A stretch of DNA of 15,871 nt, taken from assembly GCA_016930515.1 (NCBI GenBank), contig JAFGGO010000143.1:1-15871 (forward strand), given 5' to 3'. The notes beneath the pieces are model-generated. The model was not told the DNA's origin and searched no databases. It saw nothing but the letters and a program-made list of their open reading frames with translations. This document shows positions 1,500-15,832 of this stretch, piece after piece. The stretch comes from Promethearchaeota archaeon (GTDB taxonomy: Archaea > Asgardarchaeota > Lokiarchaeia > Sigyniarchaeales > SOKP01). Within the stretch, counting starts at the first letter, position 1, and the number at the start of each line of letters is the position of its first letter. The position numbers were made by a program, and so were the translations under genes.

Positions 1500-2771
1500 T
1501 TATTCTTTTTTTTCTTTCAGATTATTTAAAGCTATTTTCTTTAATTTAAAACCAAGTTCGCTTTGCATTCCCCAAATAGGGATGAAACCATAGCTAAGCT
1601 TCTGGTCGAAAGTACTTGTTGTATCATACGTGGCCAAATTCAAGTCGTATAGTCCATATGGCGATTCTCGAGCCACGACTTCGGCACTTCCCTTGAAAAG
1701 TTTCACCTTTACTGTACCCGTGACTTTTTTGTTGATTTCGTTAATAAACGCCTCAAGAGCGCCTCTCAAGGGATCCACCCAGAGCCCCTCGTAGGCAAGT
1801 TCCGTCCATCTCTGATCGACATGAGCCTTGAAAGAATTCTCGTGCTTGGTGCAAACATATTTTTCGAGGTCTTTATGAGCTTTTATCAGCATAATTGCTG
1901 CGGGAACTTCGTATGTTTCACGAGATTTCAAACCAATGGCCCTATCCTCCATGTGTTCGATGCGGCCCACTCCGTGCTTGCATCCAATGTCGTGCAATTG
2001 CCCAATCAATTTCACGGCACTCATTTTTTCTCCGTTTAATCCTACGGGAACACCCTCTTCGAAATTAATCATTATATATTCGGGTGTATCGGGTGCACTT
2101 TCGGGTGCCGTCGTCCACTCCCGAGCATCTTCAGGTGGTTCTATTTCAGGATGCTCCAATATATCACACTCGGCACTCCGGCCGAATAAGTTTTCGTCAG
2201 TGCTATATTTCTTGTTTTGGTTCGAAATGGGGATGCCATGCTCTAGAGCATATTTCATCTCCTCGTCCCGTCCCATATTCCATTCGATCATCGGCATTAG
2301 GATTTCGACATCCAGAGCGTGCGCCTTGGCAGTTACGTTGAATCTTATTTGGTCGTTTCCTTTCCCCGTGCATCCATGGGCTATGGCGGGGATATTTTCT
2401 TGTTTTGCAATTTTAACACCTTCTATCATGATAAGGGGGCGCCCTACCGCCGTGCTCAAGGGATATATACCCTGATAAAGCCCATTTGCCTTGATTGTTG
2501 GAAAAATATACTCTTTTAGGAATTTCTCCTTCAAATCAAGCGTGAAGTGCTTGACGGCTCCAAGTTTGTAGGCTTTTTCTTCTATCTCCTTGAATCGACT
2601 TTTGTCAGCGAACTCTTGGCCGAGGTCGGCCGTGAAAGTGTATATTTTTGCTTTATACTTGTCCTGAAGCCATTTTAACATGCAAGAGGTGTCCAGACCG
2701 CCCGAATAGAGCAATAATATCTTCTCGTAATGGCTTTTTTTTGGTCCTAAGGTAGTAATGATAATCTCCAA
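1500..2771 (-). CDS. argG: Argininosuccinate synthase
   Basis: Signature motifs LYSGGLDTS, HGCTGKGNDQIRF, YSTDENLFGRSAE, GLKSRETYE. The exact start is uncertain (TTG at 2771 used). Confidence 0.97.
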   Translation of the reverse strand: MEIIITTLGPKKSHYEKILLLYSGGLDTSCMLKWLQDKYKAKIYTFTADLGQEFADKSRFKEIEEKAYKLGAVKHFTLDLKEKFLKEYIFPTIKANGLYQGIYPLSTAVGRPLIMIEGVKIAKQENIPAIAHGCTGKGNDQIRFNVTAKAHALDVEILMPMIEWNMGRDEEMKYALEHGIPISNQNKKYSTDENLFGRSAECDILEHPEIEPPEDAREWTTAPESAPDTPEYIMINFEEGVPVGLNGEKMSAVKLIGQLHDIGCKHGVGRIEHMEDRAIGLKSRETYEVPAAIMLIKAHKDLEKYVCTKHENSFKAHVDQRWTELAYEGLWVDPLRGALEAFINEINKKVTGTVKVKLFKGSAEVVARESPYGLYDLNLATYDTTSTFDQKLSYGFIPIWGMQSELGFKLKKIALNNLKEKKE

Positions 2772-3019: not shown

Positions 3020-3391
3020 ATGAATAAGTTGGTATCGATATTTATTGTTGAGAACGACTTCTCTTTACAGGTGCTTTATAGGAAGATACTCGAATATGGA
3101 GGATTCAAGGTCATTGAAACTGCAATAACAGGAGATGAAGCGATAATAAAGTACAAAAAAATGCGAGAAAAACCCGATCTTGTTTTATTGGATTTTCGAA
3201 TGCCCATAAAAAATGGATTGGAAATTACTAAAGAAATATTGGATATAAATAAAGGTGCAACGATTATAGTAGCTAGTGGAGACGCAAGCGTTAAGGGCCA
3301 AGCTCTCGAAGTAGGAGCAAAAATTTTTTTAAAAAAACCTTTTACTGGCGAGAGGTTACTATGCGAGATCAATGAGCTCATGTTCCACTGA
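3020..3391 (+). CDS. Stand-alone CheY-like response regulator (receiver domain only)
   Basis: IVEND acidic pocket, phosphoacceptor LLDFRMP, ASG switch, KKPF. An SD-like AGGAG precedes the ATG. Confidence 0.92.
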   Translation: MNKLVSIFIVENDFSLQVLYRKILEYGGFKVIETAITGDEAIIKYKKMREKPDLVLLDFRMPIKNGLEITKEILDINKGATIIVASGDASVKGQALEVGAKIFLKKPFTGERLLCEINELMFH

Positions 3392-3703: not shown

Positions 3704-4066
3704 ATGGTGATATCTGTATTTATTGTTGAGGACGACAAGTCAATTCAGATGTTATACCGCAAGATATTAGATTTAGTTGGATTTAGCGTGATTGGACTTG
3801 CTAATAACGGTGCCGAAGCCGTTGAAATGTATAAATCCATGGTTGATAAACCCGATATAATTCTCATGGATCATCGCATGCCTGTTAAAAACGGCTTAGA
3901 AGCCACGAAAGAAATCTTAAAGATCCACGCCGTTCAGAAAATTATATTTGCCAGCGCAGATAAAACGATTCGCGACGAAGCACTTTCCATAGGGTCTGCG
4001 GGTTTTATCGATAAACCCTTTAGTTTTGATAGGTTAATAAAGAAAATCAAGGAACTGGTTCCTTGA
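3704..4066 (+). CDS. Stand-alone CheY-like response regulator (receiver domain only), paralog of 3020..3391
   Basis: IVEDD, LMDHRMP, ASAD, DKPF motifs. Strong SD GGAGG at 3696-3700. Confidence 0.94.
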   Translation: MVISVFIVEDDKSIQMLYRKILDLVGFSVIGLANNGAEAVEMYKSMVDKPDIILMDHRMPVKNGLEATKEILKIHAVQKIIFASADKTIRDEALSIGSAGFIDKPFSFDRLIKKIKELVP

Positions 4067-4108: not shown

Positions 4109-5128
4109 ATGAAAGTTAATTATCTTGATAAGTTTCAAGGCACATTCATTGGTGTAGCAATAGGCGACACGCTCGGATATCCTTTTGAGGGGTTCTTAAG
4201 GTCGGATATTTATTCTCGTTTTGTTGATTTTGAAGATTATATTTTTAAAAACAAATCTTTATTCAAGACATATACAGACGACACGCAACTCACGCTTCAC
4301 GTTGCCCAAGCATTAATTCGAGGGAATGGATATAATGCAAATAACCTCGTTAACGAGTTCGTGATGTGGTTGGATGATCCACCCATCGGTCCTGGATATG
4401 GATGCATTTCTTCTATCAGAAAGCTCAAGTACGGCACTCCGTGGAGGGAAGCAGCATCAAACTCAGGAGGAAACGGCGCAGCCATGAGAATCGCTCCTAT
4501 GGGTCTATTTTATTCTAGGGATATTGACTCATTGAAAAAAGCGGTATTGGATTCCTGTTCTTTAACTCATTCGCATCCTGCAGCTTCTGCAGGTGCTCTC
4601 GTGATTGCAAGAGCAATATCATTTCTGTTGTTTCAAGACCCAAAACAACGATTTTCGACGGAAGAATTTATTAATGTAATCTCTGAACCTGTTAACACTT
4701 CGAGCGAAGAAACATGGAGAGAAATGGTTAAAATTCTAAGGAAGGTTCAAAACAGCTTACACCTCAGTTTAGAAGAGGGTTTGGTACGATTCTCCCAAGC
4801 AGGTGTTAAACCACCGTATTTTATTGAAGATTATATCGGAGAAGCTTTCGTGCACCCTTATACGCTTAGCACCGTGGCTTGTTCTATCTTTGTGTTCTTA
4901 AAAAGATTGGATTCCTTCAAGGACTGCATTCTCGAATTATCAACTTCCGGAGGAGATTGTGATACGGTAGGAGCAATTGGAGGAAGTCTTGCGGGAGCTT
5001 TTTTTGGACTCAAAAGAATTCCAAGCGAATTCATCAAGTTAGTAAGAAATCAAAAAAAAATATTGAACACGAGCGAAGAATTATGTAAATCATTTTTAAA
5101 AAGATATTCAAATCAGTATTATAAGTAA
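4109..5128 (+). CDS. ADP-ribosylglycohydrolase (DraG/ARH family)
   Basis: GDTLG, YTDDTQLT, GNGAAMRIAP, THSHP and GGDCDTVGAIGGSLAGA motifs, with the metal-binding acidic residues intact. Confidence 0.95.
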   Translation: MKVNYLDKFQGTFIGVAIGDTLGYPFEGFLRSDIYSRFVDFEDYIFKNKSLFKTYTDDTQLTLHVAQALIRGNGYNANNLVNEFVMWLDDPPIGPGYGCISSIRKLKYGTPWREAASNSGGNGAAMRIAPMGLFYSRDIDSLKKAVLDSCSLTHSHPAASAGALVIARAISFLLFQDPKQRFSTEEFINVISEPVNTSSEETWREMVKILRKVQNSLHLSLEEGLVRFSQAGVKPPYFIEDYIGEAFVHPYTLSTVACSIFVFLKRLDSFKDCILELSTSGGDCDTVGAIGGSLAGAFFGLKRIPSEFIKLVRNQKKILNTSEELCKSFLKRYSNQYYK

Positions 5129-5135
5129 AGAATTC

Positions 5136-5714
5136 TTAATGTTTTTCCGGGAATTTCAAGAGGAAATCTTTTACAACCAAGGAGCAAGATTTGCAGAATG
5201 TTAGTGGTTTCTTGTCCGTGTCTCCAATAGTTTCTGAAAATCGCATCACGCAATCATTTTTGCAATGATTTAGCCCAAAAACATGTCCAATTTCGTGGAC
5301 GGCTTCTTTTAAGGTCCTTAATTCAAGCAAGGATTCATTTTTCTCCCTTCCGTAAAATTGCTCTTTTAAACGGCAGGTTGAAATGATTATATAACCTGGA
5401 AAGTTTAAATAAGATTTTTCAGCGATCCCAAAGATGAAGTTCATCGTTCTGGAATACATATCTTCTTCAAGCAAGCCTAATACGCAAATATAATCTTTTG
5501 ATGATAATAACTTTTTAAGATTTTCCAATATCGAATGAACATCGTATTGTTTTCGAGAGTTATTATAAAAAGATTCGAGTAAGGAAAAAGAATATTTAGA
5601 AATTTCTACCTTGCGAATTAAACCTTTAAAATTCCACTCCAAATTTTTCTTCAGTTTTAATAACTTTCCTTGATCAAACTGATCAATTCTTTGCAATAAA
5701 ATCGTTTTTTTCAT
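5136..5714 (-). CDS. Archaemetzincin (peptidase M54 family zinc protease)
   Basis: HEIGHVFGLNHC..CVMRFS...D.K...FCKSC motif plus NFIFGIA. Start reassigned to the ATG at 5714 (MKKTILL) because the upstream 44 codons of the track ORF look like AT-rich intergenic sequence. Confidence 0.9.
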   Translation of the reverse strand: MKKTILLQRIDQFDQGKLLKLKKNLEWNFKGLIRKVEISKYSFSLLESFYNNSRKQYDVHSILENLKKLLSSKDYICVLGLLEEDMYSRTMNFIFGIAEKSYLNFPGYIIISTCRLKEQFYGREKNESLLELRTLKEAVHEIGHVFGLNHCKNDCVMRFSETIGDTDKKPLTFCKSCSLVVKDFLLKFPEKH

Positions 5715-5867
5715 GGTATAGAATGGAGTTACGTATAGTTGTTTATTCAAATGAATGAAAATCTTAATATAGTAGAGTGACTTAAAAGTAAAATACATTG
5801 GTTTATTTTTTATTATCCAATAACAAGAGATTATTCTCCCACGCAAAAGTTCTTAGAGGTTACTTAT

Positions 5868-7742
5868 TTGTTTAATCTCAATCAAGATATCGATAATGAT
5901 AAGGACGAAAATTCTGATAAAAAACGTCTAAATTTATCTATATCAAAAGAATTCGTTAGATCAGCTCCTTTTCCAATAATAATTCTCAATAATCAATTGA
6001 AGATTTTTGATATTAACAACATAGGAGAAAAATTATTTAAAACGAAGAAAAAAGAAGCTATTGGTAAAAAGTTAAAATTTCTAATCCCATACTTGGAAAA
6101 CGTTGAAATTTTGCCAAAGATATTAGAAGTATTAAAAACTGGCGTTCCTTGCATTTTTAAAACAATAAAATTGTTCCCAGATAGCGTGGATAAATATTGT
6201 ATCCAAGCCTTCAAGAGCGGAAACTTTTTAGGAGTAGTTTTTTTAAACTCCACTGAATGTGACGAAAAGGAAAGGAGTATCAGGTATCAAAGGGATAGAG
6301 CCTTAAAATATTTGGATATCGCTGGAACCATCCTCGTTGCTCTCGACGAGAAAGGAACGATCACGCTCTTAAACAAAAAGGGGCACGAAGTATTAGGATA
6401 CAAGGATGGAGTTTTGGTTGGAAAAAATTGGTTCGACACGTGCCTTCCCAAAACGGAAAGCCATCAGGTTCGAGCCGTCTTTGAGAAACTCATTTCAGGA
6501 GAAATGGAAAGGGTAGAATTCTATGATAACCACGTAATAACGAAAGACGGAACGCTACGAATGATTGCCTGGCATAATTCCTTTATATTAAGCGAAGAGG
6601 GTAATATTATTGAGATCGTTAGTTCGGGCGTTGATATCACTGAAAGGAAAAAAGTCGAAAACCAGGTTAGGTTGCTTGCCTCAGCAGTAGAACAGGCAAG
6701 CGTGGGTATCGAAATTACCGATCTAAGCGGAAATGTGCAATTCATAAACAATGCGTTTGCTTCTGCACACGATTTTTCTCCTGAAGAGTTAATCGGAAAG
6801 AACATTTCAATCTTTCACACATCTGAGCAAATGGATGATGTCAACAATTCAATGGATCACACTCGAAAAAAAGGTGAATTTATTGGAGAAATATGGCATG
6901 TGAAGCGGGATGGGACGATTTTTCCCACTATGATGCATAATGCTCTCCTCCGGGATGAAAATGGCGAGGTCATATTTATGATTGGAACGATGCGCGACAT
7001 CACAGAACAAAAAATTTTAGAAACCGAATTACGCAAAATAAGCGATTTTAAAACAGATTTGCTTCGAAGGACATCTCACGAGTTAAAAACTCCACTAATA
7101 TCGATACTAGGGTTCACAAACCTTCTATTAGAACTCCATTCCTCCAACCTCGATGAAAAAATGATCTCGATTTTGAATGAAATAAGACATGGATGTTTTC
7201 GCATGGAAACAATCGTCAATAGCTTGTTAAAATCCTCCAAACTCGATTCAAAAAGCAAGAAATTAAAAAAAGAGAAAGAGAATCTCTCTTTTTTAGTAAA
7301 GTTTTGCGTGAACGAGTTAAATGGATTGATAGAAGAAAGAAAATTAAACCTCAGCGTTGATCTCCTAGAAGACATGTTCGTCGAGATTGTTAAAGAAGAC
7401 ATTTACGATGTGGTATCTCACCTAATTATTAATGCCATTAAATACACGCCATCAGGAGGTGCGATTAAGATTTATTCTGAAGTTGAAGACGAATTTTACA
7501 TCCTTAATGTCGAGGATTCGGGAATAGGAATCATATTTGAAGAACGAGAAAGGTTATTCCATAAATTTGGAAAAATTGAACACTATGGAAAGGGATGGGA
7601 CATAGGAATAGAAGGATTGGGTTTAGGCCTTTATAATTCGAAAAAGATCATTGAGTTTCACGATGGAGAGATGTGGGCGGAATCGAGAGGAAGGAATCTC
7701 GGTTCGAAGTTTTCCTTTTCCTTACCAATTTTTAAAGAATGA
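5868..7742 (+). CDS. Cytoplasmic multi-PAS sensor histidine kinase
   Basis: One degenerate PAS plus two PAS-PAC units (ending DITERK and RDITEQK). H-box SHELKTPL, N-box LIINAIKYT, G1 DSGIGI, G2 GLGLGL. No obvious TM helix. TTG start. Confidence 0.95.
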   Translation: MFNLNQDIDNDKDENSDKKRLNLSISKEFVRSAPFPIIILNNQLKIFDINNIGEKLFKTKKKEAIGKKLKFLIPYLENVEILPKILEVLKTGVPCIFKTIKLFPDSVDKYCIQAFKSGNFLGVVFLNSTECDEKERSIRYQRDRALKYLDIAGTILVALDEKGTITLLNKKGHEVLGYKDGVLVGKNWFDTCLPKTESHQVRAVFEKLISGEMERVEFYDNHVITKDGTLRMIAWHNSFILSEEGNIIEIVSSGVDITERKKVENQVRLLASAVEQASVGIEITDLSGNVQFINNAFASAHDFSPEELIGKNISIFHTSEQMDDVNNSMDHTRKKGEFIGEIWHVKRDGTIFPTMMHNALLRDENGEVIFMIGTMRDITEQKILETELRKISDFKTDLLRRTSHELKTPLISILGFTNLLLELHSSNLDEKMISILNEIRHGCFRMETIVNSLLKSSKLDSKSKKLKKEKENLSFLVKFCVNELNGLIEERKLNLSVDLLEDMFVEIVKEDIYDVVSHLIINAIKYTPSGGAIKIYSEVEDEFYILNVEDSGIGIIFEERERLFHKFGKIEHYGKGWDIGIEGLGLGLYNSKKIIEFHDGEMWAESRGRNLGSKFSFSLPIFKE

Positions 7743-8034: not shown

Positions 8035-9012
8035 TTAGAGAATTGTGAAAAATATTGCGATCGAAAATATTATTACAAGAATAAAAAACACGAAGCAGAT
8101 TGATAAAGGGATAATCATTATTATAGATCCGTATTTTGTTTTACGCAACTCGCTTCTTTTCAAGAATGTGTGGTAAAATACTAATGTAAAAAACACTTCA
8201 AAAGCAATAACACAAAACAATAAAATAAAATAAGAAATTTTATTTCCCCAGGCATCGGGCGCACCAACGATATTATAATGTATGGGGATAATGTCAGGAA
8301 GAAACAGATAAGAAACTATAATAAATAATACCGTTAAAGTTGATAAAATAATTGAAAAATAATAGATATTGCGGGAACGGCTTGCGTATTTTAAGGAATT
8401 CGATTCATCTTGTGTCAATAACTTTTCAGGATCAAATCTTGTTTCTTCAGCACTAGTACATCTTGATTTTAAAGCAGTTATAAAACCTTCTTCGTCTTTT
8501 GGAGACACACCATACACTCGTTCTGCTCCATTCGAATCTTTTCCTCGTAAGAGCACGAGCTTGTTCATCTTCGTGACAAACAATCGCACAGTTTCCAGCT
8601 TGCCATCGAAAAAAATCTTGAAATGTCCAGCTAAATATCCAGGAATTGCAACGCCGTTAGTCCGTATCCCACTCAATTTATATGAATTTGGTTTGCCCAA
8701 AACCGATACCGTGTTATACACTACTGAGGATTTATAAATCCCACTTTTCAATAAAAGCCGATCTTCGAGAAACTCGTATTTCATATTGTAATAACCGAGA
8801 CCAAAAACCCCAAATATGATAAACATGATTGATGTGATTATCAAGAGTACGATAAAGGTAACGACTTGATTCATTACAAGGACAATTATAAGGTTTACCA
8901 TGAGAATGATCAATAGTATCAAGAAAAAGGTTGAAAAACAAAATCCGCCTTTAGATTTTTCTGGACGAAAAATATTTTGTGTTAATGATGCGTTTTGTAC
9001 CATTAAATGCAA
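8035..9012 (-). CDS. Membrane protein: two N-terminal TM helices, a bacterial-PH-like soluble domain and a C-terminal DUF1648-like TM module
   Basis: GIRTNGVAIPGYLAGHF and YGVSPKDEEGFI resemble the bacterial PH (bPH_5-like) domain. LPDIIPIHYNIVGAPDAWGNK resembles DUF1648. About five hydrophobic segments. Start uncertain by a few codons. Confidence 0.75.
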   Translation of the reverse strand: MHLMVQNASLTQNIFRPEKSKGGFCFSTFFLILLIILMVNLIIVLVMNQVVTFIVLLIITSIMFIIFGVFGLGYYNMKYEFLEDRLLLKSGIYKSSVVYNTVSVLGKPNSYKLSGIRTNGVAIPGYLAGHFKIFFDGKLETVRLFVTKMNKLVLLRGKDSNGAERVYGVSPKDEEGFITALKSRCTSAEETRFDPEKLLTQDESNSLKYASRSRNIYYFSIILSTLTVLFIIVSYLFLPDIIPIHYNIVGAPDAWGNKISYFILLFCVIAFEVFFTLVFYHTFLKRSELRKTKYGSIIMIIPLSICFVFFILVIIFSIAIFFTIL

Positions 9013-9053: not shown

Positions 9054-10136
9054 TTAGGAATTCGTGTCAAGATTTTTTTTTAATTCTTTCCTTATCTTGT
9101 CTAATTTCTTGTCCTTTATCCAATAACGAATCTTGGAAGATTTTAAGAGCGCTTGGACCTTTTCGTTTAGTTCAGATAATTTCTGTCTGTCTTCATTAGT
9201 CAATTGTGGGATTTCTTCTTCAATTTTTTCCTTTATAGCTTCTACTTCCTTTTGAACTTGAGGAATTTTTAACGGTACCTTTCCATAAATCAATCTTTTT
9301 CGTAAAATCTCCTTTATGTATTTTATCCAAGCTTGAATCCACGGGTAGTTTCCTGATTTCTTGGGATCTAGTATTTTAATTGACTTTCTTTCGACTTCGA
9401 TCAAATCGTCTGGACACGAGTTTTCGCACGCACCACAATAAAAGCACGCCTCTTCGTTACACGCTATTTTACCGTATTTAATGACGTCTTCAGCGCTTTC
9501 AGGGATGAAAAAAGAGCGAGTTGGACAAATCAGCACGCACGCCTTGCATCCAGCAGGATCGCACTTGTGGAGCTTGCTTTTCTTGATCCGTACCTTTCCT
9601 TCGATAGGAGACGCTATTTTGAAACATTTAGTGGGGCATTGTTCTTGAATCAAGTAATAATCCTTGACATGATGTCTTTCCCTGACGCTCAGGCAAAGCT
9701 TGCAGGTTTCGTTCTTGAGGTCCTCGATACATTTAGTAGTGTCAATTTCGTAAAATTTATCGATAGTCGGATATTGATCCATAACAATTTGGTCGGTAGG
9801 TGTTATATTTTCATGAAAGGCGTCGTTCGGGCACACCACGGCACATAGCATACAATAACAACACTTTTCGTGGTCAATAAGCAGTTTTGGATTTGAATCA
9901 TCTATAATTCCTTGAATAATTTCAGGAATTGGTCCGAGATCAATTGCGTCGACGGGACAAGCAAGCTTGCATAAAGAACACCCAATGCACTTGTTTATAT
10001 CGTACGTGAGTTTTTTGTTAACATCTCCGAACGCCCAGTTCAGCACGAACCTATCAGGTTCTATTTCCAAATCCTTTTTTGCCATTTCTTTTATTTCTTT
10101 AGTGGCTTCAGTCTCATCTCGTGCATCTTCGATCAT
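9054..10136 (-). CDS. 4Fe-4S polyferredoxin, FwdF-like (formylmethanofuran dehydrogenase subunit F family)
   Basis: CIGCSLCKLACP, CCYCMLCAVVCP, CDPAGCKACVLICP and CFYCGACENSCP, plus one stretched motif C..CKLC...QCP. The AIDLGPI..I segment after the first cluster is typical of FwdF. Confidence 0.8.
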   Translation of the reverse strand: MIEDARDETEATKEIKEMAKKDLEIEPDRFVLNWAFGDVNKKLTYDINKCIGCSLCKLACPVDAIDLGPIPEIIQGIIDDSNPKLLIDHEKCCYCMLCAVVCPNDAFHENITPTDQIVMDQYPTIDKFYEIDTTKCIEDLKNETCKLCLSVRERHHVKDYYLIQEQCPTKCFKIASPIEGKVRIKKSKLHKCDPAGCKACVLICPTRSFFIPESAEDVIKYGKIACNEEACFYCGACENSCPDDLIEVERKSIKILDPKKSGNYPWIQAWIKYIKEILRKRLIYGKVPLKIPQVQKEVEAIKEKIEEEIPQLTNEDRQKLSELNEKVQALLKSSKIRYWIKDKKLDKIRKELKKNLDTNS

Positions 10137-10312: not shown

Positions 10313-10810
10313 TCACGAAAAATAACTCAAGCTCTCTTTATCAAAATCCTTGATGTAATCTACTGTTAACCCGCGAGGATTTAATTCTGGAGGCGCGTAG
10401 ATAAAATTTAAATCCGGGAAGAAAGCACCGATTCCCTTCTCCGCTAAAATTAAGGCGGGATCTCCTTTTTTAAAGAGTTGCTTGCTAACTTTTAAAGTTA
10501 CGTCGCGGCAATCATTTTCGTCAAGAACGCCAAGTGAATGTATGTATTCGTGAAGGAGTATGTGATACGTATAGGCTCTTACTATGTGTTGAGGTTGCTT
10601 TTGGAGCAAGATTTTTAAGGCTGTTTCGTTCATGTAAATATCCGTTCCAGGAGACACATGCAATCCACCAATAAAACCACCTTTGTACATTCCCATCTTG
10701 ACGAGCCCTAATGTTAATCCCGATCGATGCTTCTTAAGTACTCTTTTCACATCCATTTTGACCTTCTCAAAAATTTCTGGAATTTCCTCTTTGAGATCCT
10801 TAAAATTCAA
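10313..10810 (-). CDS. Small HEXXH zinc metallopeptidase-like protein (minigluzincin/SprT-like fold predicted)
   Basis: HILLHEYIHSLGVLDE (H87-E88-H91, candidate third ligand E98). TTG start preceded by an SD-like GGGGTGA. Confidence 0.75.
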   Translation of the reverse strand: MNFKDLKEEIPEIFEKVKMDVKRVLKKHRSGLTLGLVKMGMYKGGFIGGLHVSPGTDIYMNETALKILLQKQPQHIVRAYTYHILLHEYIHSLGVLDENDCRDVTLKVSKQLFKKGDPALILAEKGIGAFFPDLNFIYAPPELNPRGLTVDYIKDFDKESLSYFS

Positions 10811-10848
10811 AAATTATTTCACCCCTTTATATAAAACAAAATAATTTA

Positions 10849-11658
10849 TTAAAAACTGAAAAACCAATCATCGTCCTCTTCGTATAGAAACCCCATGAGT
10901 TTCGATAGATCCCGAAGGAGTGGTTGAACAGAAACTCTATTAATAGCGCGTAAATCATTGTCCATATCGGAGGAAAACAAGTCGTCTAACAAGCTATCGA
11001 TGTTTATCTTGTCAAAATATTTTTCTGGGTTGAAAAACAAGGTAAACATGATCTCTTCTCCAAGGTTGAGGCTTTTCTTAACTAATTTTTCCTTGTTCCT
11101 CCTCTGACGAATGGTTTCTAAGAGTCGATTTTTAAAGCGTTCGTCCATAAGGTTTTTCAATTCAATTATGCAACATTGCTTTTTTTGGAGTAGATCGTTC
11201 CTCTCGCTTTCCAAGTCGTTTATATCGTTTTCAATTAGCTTGATCGTTTCGCCCAAGAATTTTATTTTTTCCTCTGGTTTTTTTATACTCGTATAATCTC
11301 GCGAAAATTCTGTATTTTGAAGAGTTGTTGTTGGTATTGCTTGATTTAGAACATCTTTTGTTGCGTACTTGATGTTATAATAGTCTGGACTTATGTCTAT
11401 TCTCACTAAAATGTCCTTTTTAATCCGATACTTGCTTTTTTTTGGATTCTTATCAATGTCTTCTATAAGTCCATTTTCTTCTAGGAGTTTCAACTGGCTA
11501 TGTACGGCTTGTCTTGAAATATTCAAGCTATTTGCTAATTCAGAGGCAGAGTGAGGCACTTTCGAGAGTTTGGAAAGCAACATCCTCCTCGTGGGATTTC
11601 CAAGCATTTCCAACAACAGATCAAGTTGCATGTTTTGACTCGTTTCTTCAACCGTCAT
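10849..11658 (-). CDS. ArsR-family winged-helix regulator with a coiled-coil extension, Phr/HSR1-like heat-shock repressor
   Basis: LGNPTRRMLLSKLS...ASELANSLNISRQAVHSQLKLLEENGLI wHTH. Heptad-like IKLIENDINDLESERNDLLQKKQ segment. Located in the hsp20-cdc48 run. Confidence 0.85.
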   Translation of the reverse strand: MTVEETSQNMQLDLLLEMLGNPTRRMLLSKLSKVPHSASELANSLNISRQAVHSQLKLLEENGLIEDIDKNPKKSKYRIKKDILVRIDISPDYYNIKYATKDVLNQAIPTTTLQNTEFSRDYTSIKKPEEKIKFLGETIKLIENDINDLESERNDLLQKKQCCIIELKNLMDERFKNRLLETIRQRRNKEKLVKKSLNLGEEIMFTLFFNPEKYFDKINIDSLLDDLFSSDMDNDLRAINRVSVQPLLRDLSKLMGFLYEEDDDWFFSF

Positions 11659-11706
11659 TTTCTAATTCACTCCTTTTAAATTTTTTAAAATAAAATTGTT
11701 AAAATT

Positions 11707-13929
11707 TTATCGATAGAGATCTTCTGAAGCTTCTGTAATTCGTTGCTCCGCTTTCATTGCCCTATCTGCCGTGTTTTTAACTTTTTCTATCGACTTATCA
11801 AACGCTTTTTTATTGACCTTGACTATTTTCACGGATTCGGGATCGCTCGTATCGATATTTGGATTCGCAACGGCATCTCTAATAGTTAACAAGATAGCTT
11901 CCTCGCAGATTGCTTCTATATCTGCGCCTGTATAACCCTCCATATCTTCTGCCATCTTATCGAGGTCTATTTCATCGTCTAGTGGTTTCTTTTTAAGATG
12001 GATTTCGAATATACTCTTCCTAGATTCTTTGTCCGGTTTCGGAATTTCGATGTGCCTTCCAAACCGTCCCGAACGCAGCAACGCTGGATCGAGCATGTCG
12101 GGTCGATTGGTTGCGGCCAACAATATGACATCCTTCAAACCTTCCAGGCCGTCCATTTCGGTAAGCAATTGGGATACGACTTGTTCGGTTACCTGCGATC
12201 CCGCGTGAGAACCTCTTAATCCCGCAATTGCGTCTATTTCGTCAAAGAAGATTATGCAAGGCGCTGCGGCGCGAGCTTTTCTAAATGTTTCTCTCACTGC
12301 TTTTTCGCTCTCTCCAACCCATTTCGATAAAAATTCGGGACCTTTCACGGATATAAAATTAATCTCTGACTCGTGTGCTAATGCTTTTGCGATTAATGTT
12401 TTTCCAGTACCAGGCAGACCATATAAAAGTATGCCGTTAGGAGGATTTGAGTTTAAGTGTGCATAAAGCATAGGATATTTCAAGGGCCACTCGATTACCT
12501 CACGGAGTTGTTGCTTGGCCTCCTCTAAGCCCCCCACATCATCCCATGTCTCTGTTGGTTGGATTATCAATACCTCCCTTAAAGCAGAAGGTTCAATGCT
12601 GCTTAAGGCTGATGTAAAATGGTTCATTTTAATTTGGATGTCATTAAGCACTTCGTTGGGAATAGGCTTGTCTAAATTTATTTGAGGCAGGATTTCTCTA
12701 ATCGAAAGCATCGCAGCCTCTTTAGCTAACGCTTCAATATCGGCTCCTACAAAACCATGCGTTTTTTCGGCAATTAGTTGCAAGTTAACGTCCTTGTATA
12801 AAGGCATGCCTCGAGTGTGTATGAGCAAGATCTCGTAGCGCCCATCGGTATCGGGAACGCCTATCTCTATTTCCCTGTCGAACCTTCCAGGTCGTCTCAG
12901 AGCCTCGTCAATGTCGTTAACCCTATTCGTGGCACCTATAACGATTATTTCGCCCCGTCCTTCAAGACCATCCATGAGCGAGAGCATCTGGGCCACGACT
13001 CGCCGTTCTACTTCACCCGTTACTTCCCCACGTTTCGGAGCTATCGAATCCAATTCGTCTATGAATATAATTGAAGGAGCCATTTCTTTAGCTTCTTCGA
13101 ACTTCTTCCGTAAATTCTCTTCGCTTTGTCCATAAAACTTGCTCATGATCTCAGGACCACTAATAGTTATGAAATGAGCATCTGTCTCGTAAGCCACGGC
13201 TCTTGCAAGTAATGTTTTACCCGTTCCGGGAGGTCCGTGGAGTAAAACGCCCTTTGGTGGATCGATACCTATTCTTTTAAAGAGTTCGGGATGTCTTATT
13301 GGTAATTCTATCATTTCTCGGATTTTCTGTATTTCTTCAGCAAGACCTCCTATATCCTCGTATGTAACTCGAGATTTTTCTAATTCTTTAATTTCCTTAT
13401 GACTTTTTTCAGAAAGATAGATTTTAGTATCGGCGAGAATCCGTACGGCTTCTGCTTTAGGCGTGTAATCAACAACTATGAGGTCGACCCTCCTACCCAT
13501 TGCGTAAAAGCTAAGAATATCGCCTTTAGTAATCACGCGATTTTCGAGCTTTCGAGCTAGTTGCTGCGTGTTCCTCACAATGACAGTTTCCTCCAAACCT
13601 GCGAATGTGATTTTAGTAGCTTCTTCAGCTTTAATTCTCCTTATCTCCACGATGTCGTCGAGCGATGCGTTTAAGTTTCTTCTTAACGATTGATCAATTC
13701 GTATAGAGTTGGTTCCTTGATCTTCGACTTTTCCTGGATATAACAAAGCAGCAGTGGTTTTCTTCGCTATGGGGTGATAGATCTCAATTACGTCTCCATT
13801 TCTCAGATTCATTTCTTCTATCAAGTCGGGATCGATTCTGATTCGACCTCGTCCAGCGTCTTCTTTCAACGCATCTTTCACTCGCGCTTTATGTCCGTCA
13901 AATCTATTATTATCGTTTCCGTCCATCAT
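11707..13929 (-). CDS. cdc48: CDC48/p97/VAT-family double AAA+ ATPase
   Basis: N-domain ([10 protein letters not shown]). D1 [21 protein letters not shown] and D2 [20 protein letters not shown]. Pore loops KFYG and KWVG. C-terminus EDLYR. Confidence 0.97.
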
Positions 13930-14033
13930 ATTTCTGTTAATCTCCTAAATTAAGTTCAAAAATACTTTTCATTGTTCTTTTTAATATCATGAATTTTCTC
14001 ATTGTATGTGTTAAAGGTAAGGCTCTTATTTAT

Positions 14034-14633
14034 TTATTCACTCCTCGATACCTTAATAATAATCAAACCGTTGTTTAATTCCACTGAAATATCGTTATTT
14101 GTAGATTTATAGGGTATTTGTATGTCTTTCAAATACGATTTATCGTCCTTTTCAGCATAGAAAGACAATATATTATTTATTTCGTCGAAATCAGTTGAGA
14201 TTTGGTCCTTTTGAATACCAGGGATATCAATGATTATTTCCGTAAACGAGTCGAAATCATTAATTTCAGTATAAGGTTCGCGAACATTAAAATCGCTTCG
14301 ATTATCACAATCTTCCAATACGAAATCGCTAGCATCAAGGGATCTTTTTTGCTCTTGAGGGTTAGTCTTATTTAATTTAGCTCTTCTCTTATTTGAATTT
14401 TTTATTAAATTTTTTAAATCCCGTTCTTCAATATTTTCTTCAATTTTTATTTCGGGATCCTCCTTTCCTTCTTCGAAATGATATGAAACCTTGAATCCTT
14501 TTGGATTGTTCTCAAACGTGTTAGTTTCGGGGAATATGAACACATCCAAATCGAAATTTTCTGCCCCTACCTTAAACAATTTTCGAATTCTATTAATAAA
14601 ATCGTCAATATCGCTCGACACTTTTTTCACCAA
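14034..14633 (-). CDS. hsp20: Small heat-shock protein (Hsp20/alpha-crystallin domain)
   Basis: REPYTEI...IIIDIPGIQKDQI...NNGLIIIKV alpha-crystallin pattern, directly upstream of cdc48. Start is TTG (14633) or the next codon GTG. Confidence 0.82.
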   Translation of the reverse strand: MVKKVSSDIDDFINRIRKLFKVGAENFDLDVFIFPETNTFENNPKGFKVSYHFEEGKEDPEIKIEENIEERDLKNLIKNSNKRRAKLNKTNPQEQKRSLDASDFVLEDCDNRSDFNVREPYTEINDFDSFTEIIIDIPGIQKDQISTDFDEINNILSFYAEKDDKSYLKDIQIPYKSTNNDISVELNNGLIIIKVSRSE

Positions 14634-14639
14634 TGTTTG

Positions 14640-14691
14640 TATTTATGTTTTGTCAACCTCTAATTTACATAAATAAATTTACGTTTAAAAA
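14640..14691 (-). promoter_or_regulatory. Candidate hsp20-cdc48 promoter/operator: nested inverted repeats downstream of a TATA-like box
   Basis: TATTTATGT (14640-48)/ACATAAATA (14667-75) perfect 9-bp IR. Inner imperfect palindrome TGTCAAC-N5-ATTTACA (14651-69). TTTTTAAA on the minus strand at 14684-91. Confidence 0.5.
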
Positions 14692-14773: not shown

Positions 14774-15832
14774 TTAAGATTTGATCTCTTGCCTTACTTC
14801 TTGTATGGCTTTAAAAGTAGTTGATAGAAGCTCAAAGGCAACTTCGGGAGGCTTCCAACCAGACAAACCGCAGTCAGGCCCCACATATCTGAGTCGATCT
14901 CTGTAATGACTTAATGCATCAGAAAGATTTTTTTTAATAACTTCCTTGGAATCAATCAAGCTCTTAACGCCTTCTATAGTCTTTAATTCATCGTAGGAGA
15001 CTCCAGAGTCCATTTTCTCAGCCATTATGCTATTAATATTCGTTCTTGTAATACCTACTCGCATGAATTTATCGTATTGGTCGAGTTCTCGCTTGGGAAT
15101 TTTGTTTTTTTTATCTGAGGCGTATTCACAAGTAAGAACATCAATATTCTTCGTTTGAAGGGGGACCTGAGCCAAGTTAAGAGTATGTAAGTGAATTTGA
15201 CTGGTGGCGCTTATGTTTTCCAGTGATTTATCAAAAATCGATGCTATTTCGTCATTATTAATGTTTGCAAGGTCAACATATCCGAAGGAAGGTTCGTCTA
15301 TCGATACGATGGAAGTTTTCATGTATTTAGTGTTAATGATCGAGTTTTTAAGGAATAAATTAACTGATTTTGCGTAATTCAGAGCCATATCTTGATACAC
15401 GGTAAATCCGTGTTTTTTCAAGTACAGTTCAATAGGCCCTGTAATGCAAATTTTCACCTCTATTTTTTTTCCTTCCTTTTCATAATTTTCTTTCGCAAAT
15501 TTCTCAAGCACAAACATTTCTGGGATGAAGGCTTTATCTGATTCCACGAGTCCAGGTTCTTTCTCGTAATCTACGATTGGCTGTAAAAATTGGTTATACA
15601 TATCCATGTGTTGGGGAAAATTGATGATTTCGACTCCCGCTTTCAACTTGTACTGAAAAGATTGAAGAAAAGGACTTATAAAATAATTATAAATGCCTCG
15701 ATTTTCAAATATATCAGATTTTTTAACAAGTGCCTTGTAGGCAATCCAATAATACTTGCTAAAAGCTTCTAGATCAATACTTTCAGAGAGCGGAAAACTT
15801 CCAACATCATCGTATTTAGGAAATTCAGTCAT
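14774..15832 (-). CDS. Core (folate-domain-lacking) methionine synthase, MetE C-terminal-barrel type, probably MesC-like
   Basis: YDDVGSFPL, KICITGPIEL, SIDEPSFG, QIHLH, CEYA and GPDCGL motifs. At 352 aa it is about half the length of MetE. Confidence 0.8.
   Translation of the reverse strand: MTEFPKYDDVGSFPLSESIDLEAFSKYYWIAYKALVKKSDIFENRGIYNYFISPFLQSFQYKLKAGVEIINFPQHMDMYNQFLQPIVDYEKEPGLVESDKAFIPEMFVLEKFAKENYEKEGKKIEVKICITGPIELYLKKHGFTVYQDMALNYAKSVNLFLKNSIINTKYMKTSIVSIDEPSFGYVDLANINNDEIASIFDKSLENISATSQIHLHTLNLAQVPLQTKNIDVLTCEYASDKKNKIPKRELDQYDKFMRVGITRTNINSIMAEKMDSGVSYDELKTIEGVKSLIDSKEVIKKNLSDALSHYRDRLRYVGPDCGLSGWKPPEVAFELLSTTFKAIQEVRQEIKS

Follow-up and report, generated by a model that had tools for sequence, protein, structure and literature searches.

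A putative mini-zincin metallopeptidase gene closes a predicted heat-shock operon in a Lokiarchaeia-type archaeon and recurs beside cdc48 in other archaea

What does a small gene for a HEXXH protein do at the end of an apparent heat-shock operon, behind the genes for a small heat-shock protein (sHSP), the unfoldase Cdc48 and a winged helix-turn-helix (wHTH) regulator? The question is raised by a contig of 15,871 nucleotides (nt) from a Promethearchaeota archaeon (Asgardarchaeota; Lokiarchaeia; Sigyniarchaeales; GenBank assembly GCA_016930515.1, contig JAFGGO010000143.1), the whole of which was analysed and is called the window below. An earlier reading of its letters, the original prediction, had proposed that the operon couples Cdc48 to a small HEXXH protease, possibly as the archaeal counterpart of the partnership of Cdc48 with Wss1 or SPRTN. 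Eukaryotic Cdc48 acts via dozens of cofactors, including the proteases Wss1 and SPRTN, whereas archaeal Cdc48 is not known to have any described partner besides the 20S proteasome, a point at which no search was aimed. The HEXXH zincin, small, widely conserved and found repeatedly next to cdc48 in genomes of Asgard, DPANN and Bathyarchaeia type, offers a concrete candidate that can be cloned, through which the origin of Cdc48-protease cooperation becomes open to bench tests. Judged by its sequence, the operon is a variant of the Phr/HSR1 heat-shock module, and its new part is an unassigned mini-zincin family with a genomic link to Cdc48.

All coordinates are positions of the whole window, and a list of open reading frames (ORFs) with their translations served as the starting point. 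Four genes lie on the minus strand between 10313 and 14633 in the order hsp20, cdc48, phr-like regulator gene and HEXXH gene; their co-orientation, the gaps of 104, 48 and 38 nt between them and the palindromic element ahead of them, all named in the original prediction, were confirmed by the ORF list and a pattern search. The corresponding median gaps across 61 related loci were 62, 42 and 49 nt. The first gene encodes a divergent sHSP, for which Pfam HSP20 gave no match and the NCBIfam archaeal Hsp20 model gave an E-value (E) of 3e-11 at 43 bits, under the cut-off of 140, over the alpha-crystallin-like part; the gene was syntenic in all 22 Lokiarchaeia-type loci with the cluster. The second product scored 946.9 bits against TIGR01243 (cut-off 802.65) and contains CDC48_N, CDC48_2 and two AAA domains, which identify it as a Cdc48/VAT-type protein, and the FtsH model scored under its own cut-off on it. 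As read from the translation, its pore-loop stretches KFYG and KWVG are aromatic and its C-terminus is LYR; the last three residues of the 50 listed operon orthologues all fit [L/M]-[Y/F]-[R/K/Q], which we take to be the HbYX type of proteasome-docking tail. The window's genome encodes four full-length Cdc48 paralogues, this protein among them, and CDC48 has been described as a proteasomal ATPase in archaea (PMC3493965). The third gene encodes a regulator with an HTH_20/ArsR-type wHTH (HTH_20, E 3.6e-12), whose top NCBIfam match was Phr_regulator (E 7e-13, model positions 3-162 of 191), at 48.5 bits far under the cut-off of 320.

Ahead of hsp20, sequence reading revealed a TATA-like box that aligns with a conserved CGATAAGTTTTTATAG element 5' of hsp20 in related loci, and 14 nt downstream of it starts an imperfect inverted repeat, TGTAAA-N7-TTGACA, which we predict to be the heat-shock operator; a repressor bound there would overlap the transcription start. 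The pattern TGTMAA-N7-TTGACA marked this single site in the window, with one match per strand, where 0.22 were expected in shuffled sequences, and the region holds an additional 9-nt perfect inverted repeat (Table 1). With at most one mismatch, 42 of 52 distinct related loci have the operator 5' of hsp20; none of the 52 has it in any of the three internal spacers, and 3 of 52 have it at some position between the hsp20 start and the HEXXH stop. The window's genome holds five exact copies, compared to one for the reversed control pattern, and these lie at this operon, at grpE-dnaK, at two further sHSP genes and inside a gene, so that four of the five are upstream of heat-shock genes. The products of the two further sHSP genes, both with the exact operator in promoter position, matched NCBIfam Hsp20/Hsp18 models with E of 1e-16 to 1e-21, under the cut-offs. 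Since a near-identical operator (TGTAAATTAAAGGTTGACA) and the same promoter layout precede grpE-dnaK, the Phr-like regulon of this Asgard archaeon appears to span four promoters, including that of the Hsp70 system. We regard it as well supported that the four genes form one predicted heat-shock operon behind a Phr-type operator; they would be co-transcribed, and the regulator is presumed to be an autoregulated repressor of the operon. Three metatranscriptome runs of one study contained almost none of the sequence words of the stretch.

A heat-shock module of the Phr/HSR1 kind, as originally proposed, is thus upheld by the operator at four heat-shock promoters, its recurrence in related loci and the regulator's top match. 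The regulons of Phr in Pyrococcus and HSR1 in Archaeoglobus contain an sHSP gene and one for an AAA+ ATPase, Phr binding across the start site, with autoregulation (PMC10653856, PMC9133787). The operon shares with them the sHSP and Cdc48-type AAA+ genes and a regulator gene inside its own presumed regulon; its wHTH protein may be a Phr-related repressor, and its operator may overlap the transcription start. It differs in the operator itself, which is published as TTTA..TGGTAA..AAAA and CTAAC-N5-GTTAG for the known systems, in the longer regulator (269 amino acids), in a regulon that adds grpE-dnaK and two sHSP genes (excerpts of the same papers do not mention Hsp70), in the fourth gene and in its host, an Asgard archaeon rather than a member of the Euryarchaeota. 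Dedicated archaeal heat-shock transcription factors are said to have been shown previously only in certain Euryarchaeota (PMC10653856). The present data define an Asgard heat-shock regulon of the Phr-like kind, with its operator, four promoters and grpE-dnaK included, and a literature search of a limited corpus returned no description of an Asgard Phr-type regulon, of the HEXXH family or of its Cdc48 link.

The HEXXH protein matched no Pfam or NCBIfam family. In a large protein collection, 317 homologues of similar length were found at E ≤ 0.001, all unnamed or 'hypothetical', and the family comprises 227 representative clusters. Sampling of genomes placed the gene in 180 of 400 from Asgard archaea, including 123 of the 134 that belong to the window's own family; outside Asgard it occurred in 37 of 201 genomes of Aenigmarchaeota, 55 of 251 of Thermoplasmatota and 73 of 251 of Thermoproteota, and also on contigs labelled Micrarchaeota, ANME-1, Hydrothermarchaeales and Methanomassiliicoccales. 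The motif residues named in the original prediction (H87, E88, H91, G94, D97 and E98) are all in place, and among 74 diverse members H87, E88, Y89, H91, G94 and E98 were each at least 90% conserved; F14, V17 and K18 are nearly invariant in the family. HExxHxxG was found in 176 of 191 distinct locus proteins, of which 128 carry DE and 25 NE at positions +10/+11 (Asp at +10 in 129, Asn in 25), and the family motif is therefore written HExxHxxGxx[D/N]E. Because 167 of the 176 keep Glu at +11 while +10 varies between Asp and Asn, the invariant Glu (E98), four residues past the Gly, is the better candidate and likely the third zinc ligand, which agrees with the caveat of the original prediction that this ligand looks like Glu.

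Apart from the catalytic domain, the protein consists of a 30-residue tail and nothing more. Its C-terminus, FD[K/R]xSxxY[I/F]x with an end two residues past the Tyr, is kept in nearly all groups, Cdc48-adjacent or not, and in the window protein 74 residues follow H91 and the conserved Tyr stands third from the end. The isoelectric point (pI) of the window protein is 8.5, and the family median is 6.6. A search for fused forms among longer proteins (371-2000 amino acids) at E ≤ 1e-5 returned none, which is weak evidence by the tool's own rating. On one Thermoplasmata contig the HEXXH domain and KatG (catalase-peroxidase) share a single 953-residue frame, which is either a true fusion or an assembly error, and on a related Thermoplasmata contig katG adjoins the HEXXH gene on the opposite strand.

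The AlphaFold2 (AF2) model of the window protein, with a predicted local distance difference test score of 90.5 and residues 151-160 confidently placed, suggests a minimal zincin fold in a single 165-residue domain, without an extra DNA-binding or Cdc48-binding module. Its fold matches were selecase (Z 9.0), YbeY (8.7), jannalysin (8.5), SPRTN (6mdx, 8.5), abylysin (8.3), the mini-zincin Acel_2062 (3e11, 7.6) and Wss1 (6.9), all within the tie range of the structure-comparison tool, with further matches to YbeY (8.0), 2ejq (7.0) and Wss1 (6.1). The minigluzincins selecase, projannalysin and proabylysin resemble the window protein as small, soluble, single-domain archaeal HExxH zincins, and they aligned over 101-107 residues of their 104-109-residue chains at a root-mean-square deviation (rmsd) of about 3 Å, which, the matches being tied, denotes a shared scaffold and not membership. 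The window protein differs from them by about 55 additional residues, its own conserved C-terminal tail and HExxHxxGxx[D/N]E. A profile search against all PDB sequences gave chance-level matches only (ribosomal protein L20, E 0.7), which speaks against a sequence relation to the minigluzincins or to other solved structures, and Foldseek against the PDB returned nothing at E ≤ 0.001, with selecase and jannalysin best at E 0.06-0.1. The proposed comparison with SprT, WLM and minigluzincin structures fits a minimal zincin fold by Z score and singled out none of these families. As for the small HEXXH protease that had been predicted, its minimal zincin fold (Z 7-9) and conserved site stand, and proteolysis itself is presumed from them.

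By motif, Acel_2062 is the nearest described analogue we could name from the sequence. The HEXXHXXGXXD motif of the bacterial mini-zincins (Acel_2062/TTHA0227; Zincin_1, DUF1025) recurs in the window protein as HEYIHSLGVLD, and in homologues from that family Glu frequently serves as the third ligand, while a Tyr at the C-terminus takes over from a Met-turn in stabilising the metal site (PMC3890501). The published family is restricted to bacteria and has its motif at the extreme C-terminal end, unlike the window protein with its long stretch behind H91 and its archaeal family. The Zincin_1/DUF1025 model (PF06262) matched neither the window protein, even at E ≤ 1, nor any other protein of the window's genome, and 14 of 74 family members gave sub-threshold matches, the best at E 0.0023. 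We therefore file the protein, as far as the models go, under an unassigned archaeal mini-zincin family.

The link to Cdc48 was examined in a gene-neighbourhood survey of the kind that had been proposed with the prediction, and the linkage was found well beyond the window. In the window's own family, hsp20-cdc48-phr-HEXXH was present in 22 of 24 sampled loci, the two lacking it belonging to one genus. In Aenigmarchaeota, a co-oriented cdc48 lay within 1.5 kb of the HEXXH gene in 14 of 30 loci, upstream in 12 and downstream in 2, partly with a 1-nt gap or overlapping frames (e.g. L122 and L132), and in two Aenigmarchaeota genomes checked the HEXXH-adjacent Cdc48 was the single full one. In 5 of the 12 loci with cdc48 upstream, a tightly packed DUF3467 gene stands between the two; its product may be a third component of the pair, and a literature search for DUF3467 in a limited corpus gave nothing relevant. 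In Thermoproteota (Bathyarchaeia-type), Cdc48 was nearby in 4 of 30 loci, three of them arranged as wHTH-HEXXH-Cdc48 and one with Cdc48 upstream, and another locus has the order wHTH-hsp20-HEXXH, its Hsp20 scoring above the NCBIfam cut-off. When 438 ORFs from 90 non-Asgard loci were grouped without supervision, Cdc48 formed the largest neighbour cluster (17 loci vs 8 for the next), where a rough estimate from gene and genome sizes puts the chance expectation of Cdc48 adjacency below 1% per locus. Mapped on the family tree, the linkage state required at least 8 changes (191 rows, FastTree) or at least 9 (112 rows), and a single clade for the 27 linked rows was rejected by the approximately unbiased (AU) test (difference in log-likelihood 452.6, p-AU 0.0103), a test weakened by the definition of the linked group after the first tree had been viewed. 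Since the gene orders differ among Asgard, Aenigmarchaeota and Thermoproteota, this recurrent adjacency in three phyla suggests selection for proximity and a functional link between the two proteins.

The Thermoproteota clusters open with a protein whose C-terminal part is weakly wHTH-like (HVO_A0261_N, under cut-off), and this protein may be a different heat-shock regulator with its HTH at the opposite end from that of Phr. A seemingly independent Thorarchaeota case (L130) was rejected: its protein nests within an Aenigmarchaeota clade and its locus shares a downstream Laminin_G_3 gene with L164, so that the contig is probably misbinned. The labels of L130, L079 and L119 look wrong, the 'Thorarchaeota' contig carrying an Aenigmarchaeota-type Cdc48-HEXXH pair, and contigs labelled as Nanopelagicaceae and Krumholzibacteriaceae bacteria carry an archaeal-type HEXXH gene or cluster, for which misbinning is likewise the probable cause.

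Because an intact peptidase site is combined with the place of last gene in a holdase/unfoldase unit, the most economical reading is that the HEXXH protein is a stress-induced mini-zincin metallopeptidase tied to the Cdc48 unfoldase, and to this reading we give about an even chance. Behind it stand observations of gene order, regulon, fold class, conservation and a genomic association with Cdc48 that recurs; from these we infer co-transcription, catalysis by the HEXXH protein and its contact with Cdc48. The Phr-like repressor would most likely bind TGTAAA-N7-TTGACA, which follows the TATA box and probably overlaps the start site, and heat or proteotoxic stress would release it and allow joint transcription of all four genes. 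Hsp20 would then hold damaged proteins, Cdc48 would extract and unfold them, and the mini-zincin would cut the resulting polypeptides; alternatively, it might process a Cdc48 substrate or adaptor. Catalysis would fall to a cytosolic mini-zincin of 165 residues whose HExxHxxGxx[D/N]E site is intact; the cleft of minimal zincins is small and fits extended chains. Its C-terminal tail, Tyr-[I/F]-x at a fixed length, probably lies against the active site or regulates it and, by analogy with Acel_2062, may stabilise or gate the metal site.

Besides the weakened AU test, several observations weigh against this reading. Within Asgard, cdc48, phr and hsp20 were absent within 8 kb of the HEXXH gene in all 18 loci outside the cluster-bearing clade, two of them from one genus of the window's family and 16 from other Asgard families (Hel, Odin, Heimdall/Hod and Sif types). 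This rules out Cdc48 linkage as a general Asgard trait and makes the closeness of the lineage to eukaryotes, invoked in the original prediction, a weak argument, as the linkage within Asgard is confined to one Lokiarchaeia-type family. Throughout the window's own family the flanking methionine-synthase-like (metE-like) and polyferredoxin genes are usually syntenic with the operon as well, so that conservation of the cluster there amounts to family-level synteny and adds little. Cdc48 linkage was found in 0 of 30 Thermoplasmatota loci, and no Cdc48 was nearby in 16 of 30 Aenigmarchaeota and 26 of 30 Thermoproteota loci; since most lineages keep the HEXXH gene away from cdc48, it must be able to function without being co-expressed from a single operon. 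The remaining neighbours form a mixed, only loosely stress-related set (PadR, SOD, KatG, Usp, MsrAB, NUDIX and UPF0047), and an AT-rich TATA-like string lies within the 38-nt spacer before the HEXXH gene. A few members lack the zinc ligands, HExxH being absent in 4 of 191 locus proteins, and the closest structural relatives include 3e11 and 2ejq, for which no proteolysis has been demonstrated, and the RNase YbeY.

These points lend some weight to the view that the protein is a general stress or housekeeping mini-peptidase independent of Cdc48, whose adjacency reflects shared regulation and not a shared pathway. The gene is widespread, most of its loci have no cdc48 nearby, its neighbours include, besides those named, hsp20 and PadR/wHTH regulators, and tail and active site are identical in linked and unlinked members; yet Cdc48 is by far its commonest neighbour in the non-Asgard loci, the pairs can be as tight as those of L122 and L132, and the gene orders differ among three phyla, so we consider this view possible and on the whole rather unlikely. 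Far less credit is due to the explanation that the cluster is inherited synteny in one family without shared transcription, the HEXXH gene being transcribed alone from its AT-rich spacer. The syntenic flanks and the TATA-like string about 21 nt ahead of the HEXXH start codon would fit it, but in some relatives the phr-HEXXH spacer shrinks to 2 nt or the predicted ORFs overlap, a Shine-Dalgarno-like GGTG precedes most HEXXH starts in related loci, a transcript begun from the spacer's TATA string would lose the conserved N-terminus with F14, V17 and K18, and the linkage recurs in other phyla; we hold this explanation to be very improbable. Also unlikely in our estimate is a broader proposal, namely that Cdc48 and a dedicated mini-zincin, in some lineages joined by DUF3467, form an ancient archaeal two-gene unfoldase-protease pair, as a forerunner or analogue of Cdc48-Wss1/SPRTN or a split, soluble FtsH-like machine. 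If true, the mini-zincin would be the first dedicated archaeal Cdc48 cofactor other than the 20S proteasome. FtsH is an AAA+ protein fused to an HExxH protease and brings an ATP-driven unfoldase and a zinc peptidase together in stress proteolysis; unlike FtsH, the candidate pair has separate genes, a soluble protein, a double-ring Cdc48 ATPase and a peptidase unrelated in sequence to M41.

The proposal that the HEXXH protein is the archaeal Wss1/SPRTN counterpart, a DNA-dependent protease clearing DNA-protein crosslinks with Cdc48, draws on its fold matches with SPRTN and Wss1, and Wss1 and SprT domains have themselves been called minigluzincin-like (PMC4559962). Wss1/SPRTN are described as small minigluzincin-like HExxH proteases functionally coupled to Cdc48 (PMC4559962, PMC9127365, PMC10308373); the coupling seen here is genomic. 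The protein atlas likewise offers a lead, and only a lead, in that the cluster of the HEXXH protein carries the automatic name 'putative SprT-like' and its nearest Pfam-bearing cluster is SprT-like (score 0.84); of 151 sampled Asgard genomes just 2 gave a match to a canonical SprT-like domain, neither of them among the 72 of high quality. In one Heimdall/Hod-type genus (L049-L051 and L061), moreover, a Y-family DNA polymerase gene (IMS/IMS_C) and a conserved gene of about 520 codons without a family match precede the HEXXH gene in the same orientation, a neighbourhood that counts as a single evolutionary observation. Against this stand the sequence models. SprT-like (PF10263) matched the window protein neither at E ≤ 0.01 nor at E ≤ 1 and nothing in the window's genome, with weak matches in 5 of 74 family members (best E 0.076); WLM/Wss1 (PF08325) matched neither the window protein nor, at E ≤ 1, anything in its genome; and the HEXXH profile, aligned by hhalign with four archaeal SprT-like/DUF45-like ORFs, reached a probability of 5%, in a comparison whose four-sequence alignment has low power. 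Those archaeal SprT-like ORFs carry HELAHLxxPxH, compared to G at +7 and [D/N]-E at +10/+11 in the HEXXH family, and the third zinc ligand of SprT/SPRTN is a His shortly after HExxH. One ANME-1 and one Hydrothermarchaeales genome carry both a SprT-like ORF and the HEXXH family, and the match to SPRTN (rmsd 3.1 over 105 residues) is tied with selecase, YbeY and jannalysin and reached a Foldseek E of 2.3. The single domain has no DNA-, SUMO/ubiquitin- or Cdc48-binding module, a by-eye look at the window protein for the Cdc48-binding SHP and VIM motifs found none, the family's median pI is near neutral, and the genes of operon and regulon relate to proteotoxic stress rather than DNA repair. Orthology with SprT/SPRTN or Wss1 is accordingly not supported, and the counterpart proposal as a whole is quite unlikely. 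Just as doubtful is the idea that the protein is no protease at all and serves as a zincin-fold adaptor or regulator of Cdc48, or as a metal-dependent hydrolase of other substrates, for instance a nuclease resembling YbeY. In its favour, YbeY ranks high in the fold comparison, His ligands are lost in some family members, and the bacterial mini-zincins are reported to have no demonstrated proteolytic activity (PMC3890501), but the catalytic Glu of HExxH is conserved in at least 90% and most locus proteins keep HExxHxxG, a peptidase signature. The signature of YbeY is H-x3-H-x5-H. Peptidase activity of the HEXXH family, as held by the favoured reading, thus remains our presumption from its conserved site.

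Table 1 Positions of the genes, elements and neighbouring features in the window and in related loci
Feature	Location	Positions	Strand	Description
hsp20-like gene, divergent sHSP	window	14034-14633	minus	199 amino acids; alpha-crystallin-like part, residues 115-197
Cdc48/VAT-type double-ring AAA+ unfoldase gene	window	11707-13929	minus	740 amino acids; TIGR01243
Phr-like winged-helix regulator gene	window	10849-11658	minus	269 amino acids; N-terminal wHTH, long helical C-terminal part
HEXXH protein gene, predicted minimal zincin	window	10313-10810	minus	165 amino acids; archaea-wide uncharacterised family
Active-site codons H87-E88-x-x-H91-x-x-G94-x-x-D97-E98	window	10517-10552	minus	motif LLHEYIHSLGVLDE
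Conserved C-terminal tail V-x-x-F-D-[K/R]-x-S-x-x-Y-[F/I]-x-COOH	window	10316-10360	minus	here VDYIKDFDKESLSYFS
phr-HEXXH spacer, 38 nt	window	10811-10848	minus	Shine-Dalgarno-like GGGGTG and AT-rich TATA-like string TTTTATATAAA, by sequence reading
TATA-like box of predicted operon promoter	window	14683-14690	minus	TTTTTAAA, by sequence reading
Predicted heat-shock operator TGTAAA-N7-TTGACA	window	14651-14669	minus	imperfect inverted repeat TGTAAATTAGAGGTTGACA, by pattern search
Additional 9-nt perfect inverted repeat	window	14640-14648 / 14667-14675		
Operator ahead of grpE-dnaK	L185 (G000:C168)	1501-1519		near-identical operator
grpE	L185 (G000:C168)	1577-2248		
dnaK	L185 (G000:C168)	from 2295		
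sHSP gene with exact operator	L183 (G000:C138)	903-1448	minus	
sHSP gene with exact operator	L184 (G000:C157)	1575-2165	plus	
DUF3467 gene	L156	1158-1496		PF11950, E ~1e-12; 112-120 amino acids in the five loci
DUF3467 gene	L157	2000-2347		as above
DUF3467 gene	L159	1454-1816		as above
DUF3467 gene	L162	1161-1499		as above
DUF3467 gene	L164	1155-1496		as above
Thermoproteota cluster-opening protein gene	L218	712-1497		250-266 amino acids in the four loci
Thermoproteota cluster-opening protein gene	L226	1988-2788		as above
Thermoproteota cluster-opening protein gene	L229	716-1465		as above
Thermoproteota cluster-opening protein gene	L228	2655-3407		as above
HEXXH-KatG frame	L150	7967-10828		953 amino acids
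katG beside HEXXH gene	L131	8661-10949		opposite strand to HEXXH gene
Methionine-synthase-like gene	window	14774-15832	minus	metE-like
FwdF-like polyferredoxin gene	window	9054-10136	minus	
DUF1648/bacterial-PH membrane protein gene	window	8035-9012	minus	
Long sensor-kinase-like ORF	window	5868-7742	plus	by eye
Archaemetzincin gene	window	5136-5846	minus	Peptidase_M54
ADP-ribosylglycohydrolase gene	window	4109-5128	plus	
Small response-regulator-like ORF	window	3704-4066	plus	by eye
Small response-regulator-like ORF	window	3020-3391	plus	by eye
Argininosuccinate synthase gene	window	1500-2771	minus	

The remainder of the window holds the neighbouring genes listed in Table 1, among which inspection by eye picked out two small ORFs that look like response regulators and a long one resembling a sensor kinase. 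A second zinc protease gene, unrelated to the HEXXH gene, lies among them and encodes an archaemetzincin, which scored 154.9 bits against the NCBIfam archmetzin model (cut-off 145).

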